Below, in pieces: positions 1 to 47,965 of a stretch of 64,000 bases of DNA. Source of the DNA: an uncultured delta proteobacterium (lineage in GTDB: Bacteria; Desulfobacterota; Binatia; Binatales; Binataceae); contig CAWJET010000002.1 in the NCBI GenBank assembly GCA_963842085.1, forward strand, positions 320,001 through 384,000, written 5' to 3'. Position 1 is the stretch's first letter, and the number at the start of each line of letters is the position of its first letter. Under the pieces are notes generated by a model. It did not search any database. It was given only the letters and a program-made list of their open reading frames with translations, and was not told the origin of the DNA. The position numbers were made by a program, and so were the translations under genes.

Positions 1-410
1 GACTTGACCCCGAACGCGTGCGCGATTTCCGCGGTGACGCGGCTGAGCGACACGCCGCGGCGCATCCGCTCGGTGCGATACAGATGAGTGGCGAGATCGC
101 GATCGCCAAGTCCGAACCACGGCTTTCCGTAGAAACGCTCGAGCGCCGGCAGCACGTTGAACGATTCGCCGTCGAGTCCCCAGCCTTGCGCGCGATTCAC
201 CACGCCGGCGAGCGTATAGGTGACCGTGTCGATATCGGGTGAGACGTGAAGCCCGTAAAAGGTTTCGTCGTCGCCGGTGTTAACGACGACGGTCAGCCGT
301 GCGGGATCGATACGCCGAACCAGTCCCCGGATGAACTTAGCCGCACCCACTCCCCCCGCAAGCGTGGTTATCTGCCGGGGCGGGAGAGGTCGCGATTGGC
401 CGCGCGCCAT
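1..410 (-). CDS. cofD: 2-phospho-L-lactate transferase CofD/FbiA (5' part; runs off the window start)
   Basis: Not in the ORF track. Manual translation from ATG at 410: MARGQSRPLPPRQITTLAGGVGAAKFIRGL...VVVNTGDDETFYGLHVSPDIDTVTYTLAG...GWG...WFGLGDRDLATHLYRT, which are hallmark CofD motifs. Lies directly downstream of cofGH. Confidence 0.93.
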   Translation of the reverse strand, partial: MARGQSRPLPPRQITTLAGGVGAAKFIRGLVRRIDPARLTVVVNTGDDETFYGLHVSPDIDTVTYTLAGVVNRAQGWGLDGESFNVLPALERFYGKPWFGLGDRDLATHLYRTERMRRGVSLSRVTAEIAHAFGVK

Positions 411-5160: not shown

Positions 5161-6141
5161 ATGGAAGTCACCTACATCAAGGCGATCAATTCCGCGCTGC
5201 ACGAAGAGATGCGCCGCGACGAGAACGTCTTTGTCATGGGCGAGGACGTCGCGGAGCTGGGCGGCGCGTTCAAGGCCACCGAAGGGTTGCTCGACGCGTT
5301 CGGCGAGGAGCGCGTCATCGACACGCCCATCTCGGAGGCGTTGATCGTCGGCGCGGGAATCGGCGCGGCGGTGCTCGGGATGCGCCCGGTGGTCGAAATG
5401 CAGTTCGCGGATTTTATCTCGTGCGGCTTCGATCAGATCGTCAACACCGCCGCGACGCTGCGCTACCGTCACGGCGGCAAGGCCGCGTGTCCGCTGGTGA
5501 TACGCGCGCCGTCGGGCGCGGGCGTTCACGGCGCGCTGTTCCATTCGCAAAATCCCGAGGCGTGGTTCACGCGCGTGCCCGGACTCAAGGTGGTCGCACC
5601 CGCAACACCGTACGACGCGAAGGGAATTTTGAAGAGCGCGATTCGCGACGGCAATCCGGTCGTCTACTTCGAGCACAAGCGGCTCTATCGCAGCATCAAG
5701 GAAGACCTGCCTGAGGGCGATTTCACCGTGCCGATCGGAGTCGCGGAGCTTCGCAAGGAAGGGGGCGACGTTTCGATAATCACTTACGGCGGCACGCTCG
5801 GGCAGTCGCTCGATGCGGCGCGAATCGTCGAGAAGGAAGACGGGCTCTCGGTCGAGGTGCTCGACTTGCGCACGCTGCTGCCGCTGGATCGCGAGGCGAT
5901 ACTCGCGACCGCGCGCAAGACCGGCAAAGTGCTGGTGGTGCACGAGGATCGCCTCACCGGCGGAATCGGCGGCGAGGTTTCCGCGATCATAATGGAGAAC
6001 GCGTTCGAATATCTCGACGGTCCGGTTCGCCGGGTCGCGGCCGCCGACGCGCACGTCGCGTTCAGCCCGCCGCTCGAGGATTTCATCCTGCCGAGCACCA
6101 ACAAAATCGTCAACGCGATCCGCAGCCTGGCGGCTTACTGA
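5161..6141 (+). CDS. 2-oxoacid dehydrogenase E1 beta subunit
   Basis: GEDV..GGAF, DTPISE, EMQFADF, HGALFHSQ, FEHKRLY; abuts E1 alpha. Confidence 0.92.
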   Translation: MEVTYIKAINSALHEEMRRDENVFVMGEDVAELGGAFKATEGLLDAFGEERVIDTPISEALIVGAGIGAAVLGMRPVVEMQFADFISCGFDQIVNTAATLRYRHGGKAACPLVIRAPSGAGVHGALFHSQNPEAWFTRVPGLKVVAPATPYDAKGILKSAIRDGNPVVYFEHKRLYRSIKEDLPEGDFTVPIGVAELRKEGGDVSIITYGGTLGQSLDAARIVEKEDGLSVEVLDLRTLLPLDREAILATARKTGKVLVVHEDRLTGGIGGEVSAIIMENAFEYLDGPVRRVAAADAHVAFSPPLEDFILPSTNKIVNAIRSLAAY

Positions 6142-31282: not shown

Positions 31283-31558
31283 CTCTGTCACCCTGACCGA
31301 AGCGATCATTGCGAGCACAGCCTCGGTCATCCTGACGAAGCGAGCGACAGCGAGCGGATGGAAGGATCTCGGACAGCTTCGCCTCAGCGAAGCCGGTACC
31401 GCTTTCGAGTCGCTGCGTCCCCTCTGTAATCCTGACCGAAGCGATCATTGCGAGCACAGCCTCTGTCATCCTGACGAAGCGAGCAACGCGAGCGGCAGGA
31501 AGGATCTCGGACAGCTTCGCGCCAGCGAAGCCGGTACCGGTTTCGAGTCTCCGCGTCC
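31283..31558. repeat. Tandem duplication of a ~138-bp composite REP-like unit
   Basis: 31283-31420 and 31422-31558 align with few mismatches. Each unit has two (T/G)GT(C/A)A(T/C)CCTGA..GAAGCGA heads plus GGAAGGATCTCGGACAGCTTCGC..GCGAAGC. Confidence 0.9.
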
Positions 31559-31584
31559 AACGTTTTTCCGCTCCGAGTCGGGGA

Positions 31585-31775
31585 TGAACTATTCAGCCTG
31601 ACCCCGGCGGATTTTCTGTGCTACGCATACCGCATGACGAATAAGTCAGGCTCTCCGACGGTCGCCGCCTTCAATCCAAACATCGAGCGACGCACGCCGC
31701 CGGAAAAGCTTAATTTTGACGGAACGAAGCCAGCCCTAGTGGGCAACAGTCTCAAAACCACCACATATGGTATGA
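31585..31775 (+). other. Conserved dispersed element, copy A (four blocks plus small ORF start)
   Basis: Blocks TGAACTATTCAGCCTGACC, TGCTACGCATACCG, TTTTGACGGAACGAA and CAAAACCACCACATATGGTATGA are all repeated in reverse complement at 47040-47221. Confidence 0.85.
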
Positions 31776-31831
31776 ATTGCCATTTCCCGTCCCCAGCACT
31801 AGCAGGGAAACGGATCCCAGCGGCGCGATGA
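31634..31831 (+). CDS. Putative leaderless small ORF of element copy A (65 aa)
   Basis: Contains FDGTKPALVGNSLKTTTYGM, shared in frame with the ORF of copy B. Translation unproven. Confidence 0.4.
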   Translation: MTNKSGSPTVAAFNPNIERRTPPEKLNFDGTKPALVGNSLKTTTYGMNCHFPSPALAGKRIPAAR

Positions 31832-31847
31832 TATAATACATGTGGCG

Positions 31848-33971
31848 ATGTTTCCTGAAGATCCCAACGAAAAACACGGTACGGACGAGACTCCGCCAGA
31901 ACCAGCCGCCAGCGAGCCTACCGGCCCTCAGTATGGCTCTTTGATCGACTATCCCAAGGGCGCGCCCGCGTACAGCGACGCTAGTCCCGAGGCGCTTGTG
32001 CTGGACGACGAGTCGGCGTCCGTCGATCAGAAGTTGGCCGCTACTTCGACCGACCCGGGCATCTACCTGCTGCGCGACCGCGCGGGCAAGGTGCTTTATG
32101 TCGGCAAGGCCAAGTCTCTGCGCTCGCGCGTGCGCGCCTACTTCCGCGAGGGGGGAGACGGGCGCTTCCAGGTGCGGTTCCTGATGAAGCGGGTGCGCGA
32201 CTTCGACACGATCGTTACCGCGAGCGAAAAGGAGGCGCTGATCCTCGAGAACAACCTGATCAAGCAGTACAAGCCCAGGTACAACATCCGTCTCAAGGAC
32301 GACAAATCTTACCTGAGCGCGAAGATCACCAATCACGCGTGGCCGCGAATCACCGTCACGCGCAAAATTGTAAAAGATGGCGGCCGCTACTTCGGCCCGT
32401 TCGGCTCGGCCGACGGTCTGCGCGAGACGATCGACGTTATCCGCAAAGTCTTTCCGCTGCGCACCTGCACCGACGCGGTGTTTCGCAATCGCTCGCGGCC
32501 GTGCCTCGAATATCAGATCAAGCGATGCCTCGGGCCGTGCTGCTTGCCGGTCGATCGCGACGAGTACGGGCGCCATCTGCACGCGGCGCAGATGCTGCTC
32601 GAAGGGAAAAACCTCGAGTTGCTGCGCGAGATGCGCGATCAGATGAAGGAGCATGCGTCGCGGCTCGAGTTCGAGCAGGCCGCGCGGATTCGCGACCGCG
32701 TGCGCGCGATCGAAAAAACCGTCGAGCGGCAGACCGTCCTGCATCATTGGGGAATCGACGAGGACGTGTTCGGAATCTACCGCGAGGGCGGCTTTATCGA
32801 GGCGATCGTGCTGATCGTGCGCGGCGGCAAGCTGACCAGCACACAAGGATGGAGCTTCCAGGACCTGGAATTTCCGGTGCACGAAATTCTGTCCGACCTG
32901 CTCACCCAGTACTACTCGGGCGCGCGCAATATTCCCGACGAAGTGATCGTGCCGGTCGAGCTGGAGGACGCCGCCGTGCGCGCGGAGCTGCTCTCGGAGC
33001 GGCGCGGAAAGAAATGCGAAATGTTCCAGCCGCAGCGCGGCGAGAAGCTGCGCCTGCTCGAAATGGCGATGGACAACGCGCGCCAGAGCTTTGCCTCGCG
33101 CCGCGACAACGAAAAGACCCGCGAGCGGATGCTCGAGGATCTGCGCGTCAAGCTCGGCCTGCGTAACACGCCCAAGCGGATGGAGTGCTACGACATCTCG
33201 AATCTGCAAGGCTCGATGGTGGTCGGCTCGCAGGTGACGTTCGACGAAGGCGAGCCGCAAAAGAATCTCTACCGCCGCTACCGGATTCGCAGCTTCGAGG
33301 GCCAGGATGATTTCGCCAGCATGTACGAAGTCCTCAAACGGCGCCTCGAACGCGCGGTGCGCGAGCACGAGTATCCGGATTTGTGGGTGATTGACGGCGG
33401 CAAGGGACAACTGAACGTCGCGCTCGCGGTGCTGCGCGAGTTCAGGCTGCTCGATCAGATCGATTGCGTGTCGCTCGCCAAGCAGCACGTGCTGAACGAC
33501 CGGCGCGAGAAGGAAGTGACCAAATCCGAGGAGCGCGTCTTCATTCCGCGGCGCAAGGATCCGCTCGTGCTGCCGAAGAATTCGACGGCGCTGTTCCTGC
33601 TGGTGCGGATTCGCGACGAGGCGCATCGATTCGCGATCACCTACAACCGCGAACTGAGGCGTCGCGCACGGCTGCGTTCGGTGCTGGACGATATCGAGGG
33701 CGTCGGCCCGGTGCGCCGGCGCGCGATGCTCCGTCATTTCGGGAGTCTCAAGCGGATTCGCGAGGCGACCGTCGATGAGATCGCGGCGGTTAAGGGACTC
33801 AACCGCGAACTCGCCGCCGAAATTCGCCGGCATCTCGACGAAATGACGGCGCTGCTCGACGTCGAAGAATCCGCCGACTCCGCGGATCAGCTGGCTCTTC
33901 CGCTCGATTCATCGGCGGTTCCCGCCGACAACGCCGGCGCGAGAGTCAATGACACGCCCGCACGTGATTGA
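31848..33971 (+). CDS. uvrC: Excinuclease ABC subunit C
   Basis: PGIYL..YVGKAKSLRSRV..EKEALILENNLIK..PRYN, UVR domain LEFEQAARIRD, ECYDISN, DGGKGQ, RDEAHRFA, HhH IEGVGP. Confidence 0.96.
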   Translation: MFPEDPNEKHGTDETPPEPAASEPTGPQYGSLIDYPKGAPAYSDASPEALVLDDESASVDQKLAATSTDPGIYLLRDRAGKVLYVGKAKSLRSRVRAYFREGGDGRFQVRFLMKRVRDFDTIVTASEKEALILENNLIKQYKPRYNIRLKDDKSYLSAKITNHAWPRITVTRKIVKDGGRYFGPFGSADGLRETIDVIRKVFPLRTCTDAVFRNRSRPCLEYQIKRCLGPCCLPVDRDEYGRHLHAAQMLLEGKNLELLREMRDQMKEHASRLEFEQAARIRDRVRAIEKTVERQTVLHHWGIDEDVFGIYREGGFIEAIVLIVRGGKLTSTQGWSFQDLEFPVHEILSDLLTQYYSGARNIPDEVIVPVELEDAAVRAELLSERRGKKCEMFQPQRGEKLRLLEMAMDNARQSFASRRDNEKTRERMLEDLRVKLGLRNTPKRMECYDISNLQGSMVVGSQVTFDEGEPQKNLYRRYRIRSFEGQDDFASMYEVLKRRLERAVREHEYPDLWVIDGGKGQLNVALAVLREFRLLDQIDCVSLAKQHVLNDRREKEVTKSEERVFIPRRKDPLVLPKNSTALFLLVRIRDEAHRFAITYNRELRRRARLRSVLDDIEGVGPVRRRAMLRHFGSLKRIREATVDEIAAVKGLNRELAAEIRRHLDEMTALLDVEESADSADQLALPLDSSAVPADNAGARVNDTPARD

Positions 33972-46839: not shown

Positions 46840-47172
46840 CTAGCAGAAGCGGCGGAGGGCTGCTGCCCGCATGGTTCGCGGTACCGGCTGTTTGCCAAGC
46901 TGACAAACTGAGCTGGTGGTGAACATCACGCAATTGGTTTCCGTCGGCATGCGGCCAGCGAAAGTCGATAGAAACGCGCTCCGGCCGGGTTCCGCCGCGG
47001 GCGCGATTGTGACTGATCGAAAAGACCGAAACAGGAAAATCATACCATATGTGGTGGTTTTGGGGCGGCACCCTACCATCGGTGGGTTCGTTCCGTCAAA
47101 AAATATTCTTGTCGGAGCCGGGAGCCGCCCGATTTCTGGCGAGCGCGGCGCGTATGGAACATCATTACCCAT
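46840..47172 (-). CDS. Putative leaderless small ORF of element copy B (110 aa)
   Basis: From ATG at 47172: MGNDVPY..FDGTNPPMVGCRPKTTTYGM.., sharing the motif with 31634..31831. Translation unproven. Confidence 0.35.
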   Translation of the reverse strand: MGNDVPYAPRSPEIGRLPAPTRIFFDGTNPPMVGCRPKTTTYGMIFLFRSFRSVTIAPAAEPGRSAFLSTFAGRMPTETNCVMFTTSSVCQLGKQPVPRTMRAAALRRFC

Positions 47173-47221
47173 ACGGTATGCGTAGCATATAAGGTCCGAC
47201 CCGGTCAGGCTGAATAGTTCA
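47040..47221 (-). other. Conserved dispersed element, copy B
   Basis: Reverse complements of the four blocks at 47203-47221, 47174-47187, 47087-47101 and 47040-47062. Confidence 0.85.
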
Positions 47222-47260
47222 GCCCTCCCCAAATAGGGTGCCGGTCTGGGCGCGGCGCGG

Positions 47261-47965
47261 CTAGCCGATGCCGAGGCCGAGATCGGTGATGAAGCTCCAA
47301 TGACGCTCGTCGAGCGAGGCGAAGTTCTCGAGCTTCAGCTTGATCGTCAGCTTGTAAGTACCGTCGTCGGAAAGGGCGCCGGTGGGAGGATTCTCGTACC
47401 AGATGCTCTTTTTGCAGACGTCGAGCATCATCTGATCGATTTTAGCCTTGCCGGAGTGCTGCTCGAGGATGAGTTCGGTGAGCTTGCCGCTTTTGTCCAT
47501 GATGGCGGTGATGACGACGGCTTTGAGTTCGGTGGGCAGCCTGGTTCGCGAGATTTCCTCGCTCCTCTCGGCGACAATGAGTCGCGCATATATGCGATCG
47601 AGAATTACGGCGGCAAAATTGCCGAACTTGGCCGCCTTCTCGTTCAGCAGCCGCACGGTGGCGGGATTTCGTTCGGTGCCGACTTCGCGCGAGATGCCGG
47701 GTTCGGCCTCGAAAGTGCGGGGCCCGGCCGAGACGTCGCCGGAATCGTGCAGCAGTCCTTCGCCGCGGGCGGGAACCGCATTGACGGCGGCCAACGAATC
47801 GACGGGGGCGTCGGAGACGGTTGACAAATCGCTCAGCAATTTCGGCTGCGGGCCGGCGCCGGGGGCAGCGGGCGGCGGCTGGTCATTGGCCGCGCATCCG
47901 GCGGCGAGAATTGCGACGGCCAGGAGCAGTGCCGTGAAAAACCGTTTCCGCGGTGGGTATCTCAT
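47261..47965 (-). CDS. Hypothetical lipoprotein with a TonB/TolA-C-like region
   Basis: Lipobox LAAGC; VITAIMDKSGKLTELILEQHSGKAKIDQ resembles a TonB C-terminal fold. Confidence 0.7.
   Translation of the reverse strand: MRYPPRKRFFTALLLAVAILAAGCAANDQPPPAAPGAGPQPKLLSDLSTVSDAPVDSLAAVNAVPARGEGLLHDSGDVSAGPRTFEAEPGISREVGTERNPATVRLLNEKAAKFGNFAAVILDRIYARLIVAERSEEISRTRLPTELKAVVITAIMDKSGKLTELILEQHSGKAKIDQMMLDVCKKSIWYENPPTGALSDDGTYKLTIKLKLENFASLDERHWSFITDLGLGIG

Follow-up and report, generated by a model that had tools for sequence, protein, structure and literature searches.

A dispersed short repeat of Binatus-like bacteria is very probably a deletion derivative of a single-gene unit

A short intergenic element with four conserved sequence blocks occurs twice in a 64,000-nt stretch of DNA (the window; C2:320001-384000) and about 40 times in the genome to which that stretch belongs, a Binatus-like soil metagenome-assembled genome (MAG; G000) of 4.93 Mb in two contigs, with 61% G+C. 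According to comparisons within and between genomes, the element is very probably a deletion derivative of a longer unit that carries a single gene for a 227-residue protein. Combining the evidence set out below, we favour, at a probability of about 0.6, the reading that an undescribed mobile gene cassette gave rise, by internal deletion, to the short copies as non-autonomous derivatives, and that the blocks act as its recognition sites.

The short element retains both ends of a 227-codon gene unit

A sequence profile was built from the two window copies and iterated four times over the contigs of the genome. One match, at C1:343351-342547 (-), was interrupted by ~600 bp between profile positions 88 and 91. 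In this copy, the ATG conserved in block 2 opened an uninterrupted open reading frame (ORF) of 227 aa that ended at a TGA in block 3, TTTTGACGG, and the full-length unit measured ~0.8 kb. The 5′ half of the short element corresponded to ~55 nt of sequence upstream of this gene together with its first ~12 codons; the 3′ half corresponded to its last ~15 codons, the stop codon and ~70-115 nt downstream. The 5′ half lay before the ORF and the 3′ half after it in all 12 full-length loci, found in 12 genomes of the genus. Across the ORF body the profile was contiguous at 88/91, the pattern of an internal deletion that left both ends in place.

An alignment of the 12 full-length loci contained a conserved GTTCAGGGATGAACTGTTCAGCCT. 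Block 1 was preceded by GTTCAGGGA in ten of them, and TGnTA sat 12-13 nt before the ATG. At the other end of the gene, TT(T/C)TGACGGAAC(G/A)AA was conserved and its TGA was the stop codon in 12/12 loci. Block 4 read ACC(A/G/C)CAA in every locus and was followed by (A/G/T)GT(A/G)nnA in 11, the twelfth (L157) having a deletion there. The spacing between blocks 3 and 4 differed by 1-2 nt among orthologous full-length loci, so no frame is conserved after the TGA.

The short copies kept these landmarks to different degrees. The ATG was retained in 30/33, one common frame through block 3 was kept in 17/33 only, and their ORFs ranged from 18 to 188 aa with no conserved stop. A preliminary description of the window had taken the middle of the element for a variable short transcript. 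Rather than a designed variable region, it is decayed coding sequence, made up of what is left of the first ~12 and last ~15 codons of the gene.

A TonB-like gene lay 3′ of the full-length unit in all 11 loci for which the downstream flank was available, and the upstream flanks were mostly unrelated (7/66 pairs similar). Around second copies in G009, G001, G039 and G043, and around the single copy of G002, the stretch fetched contained no TonB-like gene; the genomic setting of full-length units varies. G000 has a cobalamin riboswitch at L031:4364-4484 (-), on C1 (Rfam RF00174; score 50 bits, threshold 31.5), between the unit and the gene with the TonB_C domain.

Gene and repeats also tended to occur together. 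Among 18 genomes (G001-G018), a close copy of the 227-aa gene was present in 7/9 of those with >=9 element matches and in 0/9 of those with <=4. The two match-rich genomes that lacked it were 85% and 82% complete. The preliminary description had proposed a search for a gene family that co-occurs with the element; the 227-aa gene tends to do so in this count, in which kinship is uncontrolled.

The window copies belong to a family of about 40

Copy 1 occupied 31575..31786 on the + strand (profile match 31580-31786 = C2:351580-351786, E 3e-45) and had no recognisable 3′ extension. Copy 2 occupied 46999..47225 on the - strand (profile match 47225-47029) and carried the 3′ extension GTTTCGGTCTTTTCGATCAGTCACAATCGCGCC at 47031-46999. 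Block 1, TGAACTATTCAGCCTGACC, was identical at 19/19 positions between the copies (31585..31603 (+) and 47203..47221 (-)) and consists of an imperfect palindrome, TGAAC-N-TTCA, followed by a -35-like CTGACC. Block 2, TGCTACGCATACCG-Y-ATG, at 31619..31636 (+) and 47170..47187 (-), contains TGCTAC, an extended -10-like TGnTA, with the ATG 12 nt on (31634-31636 in copy 1; 47172-47170 in copy 2). In copy 1, the variable middle (31637..31713, +) is what decay has left of the two coding ends, 5′ and 3′, of the ancestral gene. Block 3, TTTTGACGGAACGAA-S-CCA, at 31714..31732 (+) and 47083..47101 (-), reads TTTTGACGGAACGAAGCCA in copy 1; its TGA at 31717-31719 is the counterpart of the stop codon with which the full-length gene ends. 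Block 4, CAAAACCACCACATATGGTATGA, at 31753..31775 (+) and 47040..47062 (-), was identical at 23/23 positions. Within it, TGGTATGAA looks like an extended -10 directed at the downstream gene and, from that likeness, could be read as a promoter.

These blocks agreed with the preliminary description, as did the spacers of equal length after block 1 (15 nt) and after block 3 (20 nt) and the 9-nt length difference in the middle, which a MAFFT alignment of both copies resolved into gaps of 7 and 2 nt. Likewise, no inverted repeat joined the ends of either copy, in keeping with the reported absence of terminal inverted repeats. The extent of the element had been drawn too tightly: the blocks stand, and the end at 31775 does not, since most copies run ~45 nt further 3′ and ~8 nt further 5′. 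The 3′ extension common to most copies, ...TTTCGGC..ATTCGGTCAGTCAGAATCGCGC, reaches ~45 nt past block 4. An ORF of 47 aa on the reverse strand of each window copy was rejected as a candidate gene, block 3 being read in different frames.

Only two copies had been recognized, and many more had been predicted genome-wide. The profile returned 41 matches at its first pass, too many for chance, and 42 after four iterations, which makes a family of ~40. Thirty-three matches were full length (profile positions <=10 to >=190); the rest were fragments or halves of split copies. Each short copy measured ~200-250 bp. Of 39 GACGGAACGAA sites in the 4.93 Mb, two lay outside the family, and blocks 1, 3 and 4 were almost confined to profile matches. 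A solo block-3 motif directly after a stop codon (G000:C1:29227) and a solo block 1 (CTGAACTGTTCAGCCTTATG) outside any profile match (G000:C2:120762) are probably the last remnants of decayed copies.

A DNA search of related genomes, as suggested in the preliminary description, found the family in 13/18 further congeneric species and did not find it in 12 genomes that represent nine other families of the class. These are counts of matches rather than copy numbers, and several of the genomes lack part of their sequence. When public genome contigs were scanned for the block-3 pattern, at least 106 stretches were retrieved. Eighty of these loci were fetched; all or most of the element was present in 71 of them, which came from MAGs bearing the titles Candidatus Binatus, Binataceae or 'uncultured delta proteobacterium'.

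Blocks are conserved in old copies

In G000, 34 full copies had a mean identity of 61%, and no pair exceeded 78.5%. The 65 best-conserved columns were 92% identical and the other columns 47%, which upholds the earlier view that the blocks reflect selection and not recent duplication. Maximum pairwise identity in four other genomes, for copies with an exact block 3 only, was 66-81%. With no recent copies, there is no sign of present mobility in Binatus. When copies at the same locus were compared across species, block columns, as defined on G000 alone, were 91% identical versus 58-60% for the rest at both loci. This conservation argues that the blocks are maintained copy by copy. Within block 3, CGGAACGAA showed no synonymous variation across 111 distinct block 3-4 segments, which suggests that the constraint is on nucleotides and not on a peptide.

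The preliminary description had read blocks 1 and 2 as a promoter with the ATG at about +1. The position of the ATG fits, as it is the start codon of the 227-aa ORF and stands 12-13 nt after TGnTA. The promoter itself fared less well: a strict sigma-70 consensus scan (TTGACA-16..18-TATAAT, the -10 having A at position 2 and T at position 6) found none in either window copy. The promoter-like parts present were only TGnTA and the -35-like CTGACC.

Tests for RNA structure were negative. Rfam yielded no match at the gathering threshold in the whole window and none in related loci, and matches over the element at E<=10 were noise only; a known Rfam family, named earlier as a possible identity of the element, was thus not found. 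RNAalifold predicted no consensus structure in the 111 block 3-4 segments and weak local hairpins only in 34 whole copies. The putative transcript folded no better than shuffled sequence (z-score -0.06 forward and -0.48 reverse; n=33). Blocks 2 and 4 were complementary over 11 nt in the window copies (82% and 91%), and pairing scored 6.3/11 within copies versus 6.0/11 between copies. Given these results, the blocks look like linear recognition sequences.

We also considered block 1 as an SOS/LexA operator. No block-1-like site was present upstream of the two lexA genes, and this candidate was rejected. Three DNA-repair genes occur among 23 downstream genes (UvrC, LigD and an RNase_T + GIY-YIG protein), too few to carry weight. 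Upstream of the second lexA-like gene (L285; G000:C2, ~5380-5420), a perfect palindrome, TACCACTCA-AT-TGAGTGGTA, overlies a TTGACT-N17-TAACTAT promoter-like site and is likely a LexA-type operator, judging from its sequence. Its half-site resembles ACCAC/GTGGTA of block 4; the spacing differs.

The 227-aa protein belongs to a large, unnamed family

The 227-aa protein is arginine-rich. A search returned 197 proteins at E<=0.001, the best 120 of which were 63-100% identical to it. A profile search returned 38,040 clusters (50% identity) at E<=1e-3 and 20,645 at E<=1e-10; ten clusters that were looked up were unnamed or 'hypothetical', and a search of the ESM Atlas with the protein gave 'hypothetical' clusters only. 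On this conservation, the ORF is a real, conserved gene. The conserved core of the family is an N-terminal motif of the type ANRxNAxxSTGPRTxEGKxxSxxNAxxHG. A structural model (AlphaFold2) was all-helical and of modest confidence, with a predicted local distance difference test (pLDDT) score of 65.

G000 encodes four to five diverged paralogues, two of which adjoin S24-type repressor-like genes. An operator shared with the paralogues was considered and rejected: the intergenic regions of the two S24-adjoining paralogues have nothing in common with block 1. The preliminary description had recorded no transposase. This holds for known families; a cognate, protein-coding master unit nevertheless exists.

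Insertion sites, orientation and neighbours

The insertion site of copy 2 (46871..47263, -) is bounded by the stop codon of a gene for 234 aa (47263-47261) and by the beginning of a gene of the DHDPS family (~46871). Thirty orthologous loci were fetched. In 18/27 evaluable related genomes this second site was empty, with a stop-to-ATG distance of 11 nt between the flanking genes. It was filled in six (G000, G001, G011, G032, G035 and G038; five if the unpublished G035 is left aside), held a block-1 remnant in one and a different repeat in two. At the site upstream of uvrC, where copy 1 lies, the element was present in 6/30 loci (G000, G001, G011, G032, G039 and G043); three further genomes had block-4-only remnants, and G035 was empty. 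The comparison of filled and empty orthologous loci, another suggestion of the preliminary description, thus found both states at both sites.

The earlier remark that each window copy points in the same direction as its downstream gene extended to the family. According to crude ORF-finder calls, 15 of the 33 full copies were co-oriented with tandem genes and 2 were opposed; 11 lay in divergent and 5 in convergent regions. No replication-strand bias was detected, orientation being independent of contig position (GC skew and gene-strand bias were weak). The 23 downstream genes scanned were heterogeneous and included those for methylmalonyl-CoA mutase, a carboxyltransferase, LigD, UvrC, a P450, an MFS protein and a sigma-54 activator, among others.

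The uvrC gene (31829..33971, +) encodes UvrC domains and likely starts at ATG 31848. It has a promoter-like GATGATATAAT of its own at 31829-31839, and this sequence lies ~10 nt before the ATG in nearly all genomes of the genus, whether the element is present or absent. The element is therefore not the uvrC promoter. The short distance suggests that the uvrC mRNA is leaderless or near-leaderless, a geometry that the 227-aa gene shares.

Directly upstream of copy 1, at 31469..31570 (+), is a copy of a second, unrelated repeat family, R2, with the core ...GAAGGATCTCGGACAGCTTCGCGCCAGCGAAGCCGGTACCGGTTTCGAGTC... and ~90 BLAST matches in the genome. R2 occurred within 66 nt upstream of 13/36 element 5′ ends, always co-oriented, against an estimated chance expectation of ~0.1. 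An association so far above chance indicates that the two repeats are linked in some way. R2 holds hairpins, such as GCTTCGC-GCCA-GCGAAGC and CCGGTACCGG followed by TTT, and could be a terminator-like insulator or reflect a nested insertion preference. Elsewhere in the genome (G000:C2:781588-781100, -), a short copy is split by a ~326-bp insertion holding R2, a repeat nested in a repeat. A third repeat (GGTTCCCCTTCCC...GGGAAGGGGTTAGGGGTTAGGT) was seen at the same intergenic sites in relatives (L171, L186, L170, L179, L238, L241 and L216, covering uvrC and the second site). These two intergenic regions may be general hot spots for repeats.

The pattern recurs in another phylum

Outside the genus, the block-3 motif occurred alone: among the 80 fetched loci, six were from Terriglobia, one from Bryobacteraceae and two from Tepidisphaeraceae, against an estimated chance expectation of about one match in the whole collection. 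In four such genomes the motif was present 2-7 times per genome (<=1 mismatch), and a reversed control pattern was present 0 times.

One Terriglobia genome had 31 matches to the N-terminal domain of the protein. Nine of its units of ~1.4 kb were near-identical from upstream short repeats, through a promoter-like site (CTCTTGACA-N17-TGTGATAGCCTA), to the 3′ end of a 422-aa ORF, and their flanks were unrelated. From their sequences, these nine units bear the signature of a recently amplified single-gene unit. The 1.4-kb units (G054; L209:1250-1370, alignment columns ~810-990) begin with a variable number of direct repeats, CATTGATTCATTGA... and AATGACCCGATGAC..., which may serve as binding sites in the manner of iterons or mark the unit's left end.

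A dispersed family of ~300 bp was found in two Terriglobia genomes, with 22 and 40 matches. Its members combine the promoter type of the 1.4-kb units with the block-3 motif, and in their 3′ part they show homology to the region that encodes the C terminus in a family gene. Together, the Terriglobia and Binatus patterns indicate that a long unit with short derivatives that keep its ends arose around this protein family in two phyla.

Comparison with known systems

The short element resembles miniature inverted-repeat transposable elements (MITEs) in being short (~0.2 kb), non-coding, multi-copy and intergenic. It also keeps both ends of a longer coding unit, has one shared deletion junction and is present or absent at orthologous sites. 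Unlike MITEs, it has no terminal inverted repeats, its parent protein has no known transposase domain or fold match, its copies are old and its parent is mostly syntenic; nor is a target-site duplication demonstrable, the compared species being too diverged to fix the junctions. IS200/IS605 elements and their PATE derivatives are very small units without inverted ends that have short non-autonomous derivatives. The present system shares those properties and differs in having no Y1_Tnp or TnpB domain, no supported subterminal hairpins and no replication-strand bias.

Correia elements are promoter-bearing repeats with inverted repeats. Reused or mobile promoters are near-identical promoters found upstream of unrelated genes (PMC3575422). 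The element is similar in placing a near-identical, here putative, promoter-like sequence upstream of, and co-oriented with, unrelated genes; unlike mobile promoters and Correia elements, it adds a conserved 3′ module, derives from a gene and lacks Correia-type inverted repeats.

REPIN-RAYT systems comprise dispersed repeats and a low-copy gene (PMC3116915, PMC3337134, bioRxiv 10.1101/2021.07.10.451892). Three features are shared: a one- or two-copy, largely vertical gene flanked by sequences that are dispersed in tens of short copies; long-term persistence within a lineage; and co-occurrence of gene and repeats (7/9 vs 0/9, relatedness uncontrolled). By contrast, the repeats studied here are not palindromic REP pairs, the 227-aa protein is not a Y1/HUH transposase (no match to the Y1_Tnp Pfam model at E<=1), and the short copies include the promoter-like region, start codon and stop codon of the gene. 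By analogy, the logic would be that of an autonomous/non-autonomous pair (insertion sequence and MITE) or of a low-copy gene with dispersed repeats (RAYT and REPIN), although the defining tests of both failed. Should the protein turn out to be a mobilising enzyme of a new type, the element could be more than a variant of these.

Proposed explanation and alternatives

We propose that one internal deletion of ~600 bp in a ~0.8-kb single-gene unit gave rise to a non-autonomous form of ~200-250 bp. The 5′ region of the unit would comprise the palindrome, the -35-like CTGACC and the extended -10-like TGCTAC, the ATG standing at the position expected for the first nucleotides of a leaderless transcript. 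Its 3′ region would start at the stop codon in TTTTGACGGAACGAA and end after ACCACnACnnnTGGTATGA and a further ~45 nt. The deleted form would have spread to ~40 intergenic sites, mostly pointing as the neighbouring genes do, by transposition-like mobilisation in trans. RNA polymerase may recognise blocks 1 and 2 as the promoter from which the unit itself is expressed, with a leaderless start; their TGnTA is spaced as at the uvrC promoter-like site, although the strict scan was negative. An outward extended -10 could be supplied by block 4 (TGGTATGAA or TGGTATAAA). A sequence-specific protein, most economically the one that the unit encodes, could bind block 3 and perhaps block 1 (GTTCAGGGATGAACTGTTCAG) at its palindrome. 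Copies that survive may owe this to a local influence on transcription, serving for instance as outward or insulating promoter modules.

Several results weigh against the mobile-cassette reading. The 227-aa protein had no match in Pfam, NCBIfam or PHROG that would point to a mobilisation chemistry; it had no relative in the PDB by sequence, and its model, of modest confidence, had no Foldseek match there. The element lacks terminal inverted repeats and its ends are unrelated. Target-site duplications could not be resolved, filled and empty species being too diverged to fix the junctions. There are no recent copies in G000 (maximum identity 78.5%) or in four other genomes (66-81%), and an inactive, purely selfish element would not be expected to conserve its blocks in old copies. 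Synteny of the main full-length unit across genomes is what an ordinary gene would show, and the co-occurrence of gene and repeats is confounded by relatedness. The orientation count, moreover, used gene calls that covered ~80% of the genome.

The block conservation and the orientation bias can be accommodated by a host regulatory module, in which blocks 1 and 2 form a regulated promoter, block 4 is an outward extended -10, and blocks 1 and 3 are operators for a common regulator, possibly the 227-aa protein. This alternative, which we consider possible but rather unlikely, is consistent with block-specific conservation both in old copies and between species, the 15 to 2 orientation bias, the block-4-only remnants retained upstream of uvrC in three genomes and the resemblance of the TGnTA motifs to the conserved uvrC promoter-like TGATATAAT. 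In addition, copy 2 splits genes otherwise 11 nt apart, so that the downstream gene needs a new promoter. However, the strict promoter scan was negative and the final position of the -10 does not keep its T; between the element and uvrC or the TonB-like gene lie promoter-like sequences or a riboswitch belonging to those genes; and the 23 downstream genes scanned are functionally heterogeneous. Such a module is compatible with the mobile-cassette reading as a present-day function, the mobile origin then being secondary. The RNA results bear on a different proposal, a structured small RNA or riboswitch-like leader from blocks 1 and 2 with blocks 3 and 4 as a folded scaffold. Both window copies have the 11-nt complementarity of blocks 2 and 4, and many copies have a local CCACC-GAT-GGTGG palindrome. 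The proposal is nonetheless disfavoured and very improbable, as there was no Rfam match even at E<=10, no RNAalifold consensus in 111 segments, no folding signal (z-scores -0.06 and -0.48) and no better block 2-4 pairing within copies.

Two further alternatives concern coding. Were the short copies small leaderless protein genes of ~30-100 aa with an FDGTNPP-type motif from block 3, one would expect the ATG to persist, as it does in 30/33 copies, and a frame to be shared, as the FDGT frame is in 17/33. Aligned copies often differ in length by a multiple of three, the reading in Terriglobia copies is ...YYFDGTNLPI-stop, and two Tepidisphaeraceae family ORFs read FD(G/E)TNPP. Yet the frame is lost in 16/33 copies, the ORFs vary from 18 to 188 aa without a conserved stop, the full-length gene reads the motif in another frame (F-stop), and the lack of synonymous variation in CGGAACGAA over 111 copies points to constraint on nucleotides. 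We judge this alternative quite improbable. Block 3 might instead be a recoding signal at UGA (read-through, selenocysteine insertion or a +1 shift on UUU UGA C) that the short copies merely inherited. The TGA is followed by CGG in 12/12 full-length loci, and a Terriglobia homologue has sense codons at the aligned position, where its ORF continues. ARAGORN predicts a tRNA-Sec (anticodon TCA; G000:C1:2126874-2126969), and the organism probably makes selenoproteins. Against these points, block 3-4 spacing differs by 1-2 nt among orthologues and no downstream frame is conserved, no hairpin is supported, the TTC TGA of one orthologue does not suit a +1 slip, and the Terriglobia homologue has Arg and not Cys at the aligned position. 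A recoding signal is accordingly very hard to credit, and a read-through or selenocysteine extension of the 227-aa gene, with no conserved frame past the TGA, was not supported.

The mobile-cassette reading can be taken further. Binatota, Acidobacteriota and Planctomycetota might harbour a new class of compact DNA units that propagate themselves with a member of the 227-aa family as their only protein, and with no DDE, HUH, serine or tyrosine recombinase fold. The ~21-nt motif TTTGACGGAACGAASCYACCG, nucleotide-conserved across phyla, would be the site that this protein recognises, and hosts would retain the derivatives as promoter or operator modules. We offer this extension tentatively and consider it doubtful.

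Implications

No description of the element or of the 227-aa family was found in the literature on Binatota repeats, REPIN-RAYT systems and mobile promoters, as far as the partial sources consulted go, which is not proof of absence. For annotation, the ~40 loci per genome should not become small-ORF calls. Block 3, nucleotide-conserved across three phyla, is a concrete candidate binding target. The old, block-conserved and co-oriented copies are candidates for the domestication of a repeat into regulatory DNA in a phylum without genetics. If the proposed explanation is correct, an unannotated family with tens of thousands of clusters would gain its first biological context, as the coding part of small multi-copy units from which non-autonomous derivatives have been released in two or more phyla of uncultured soil bacteria.

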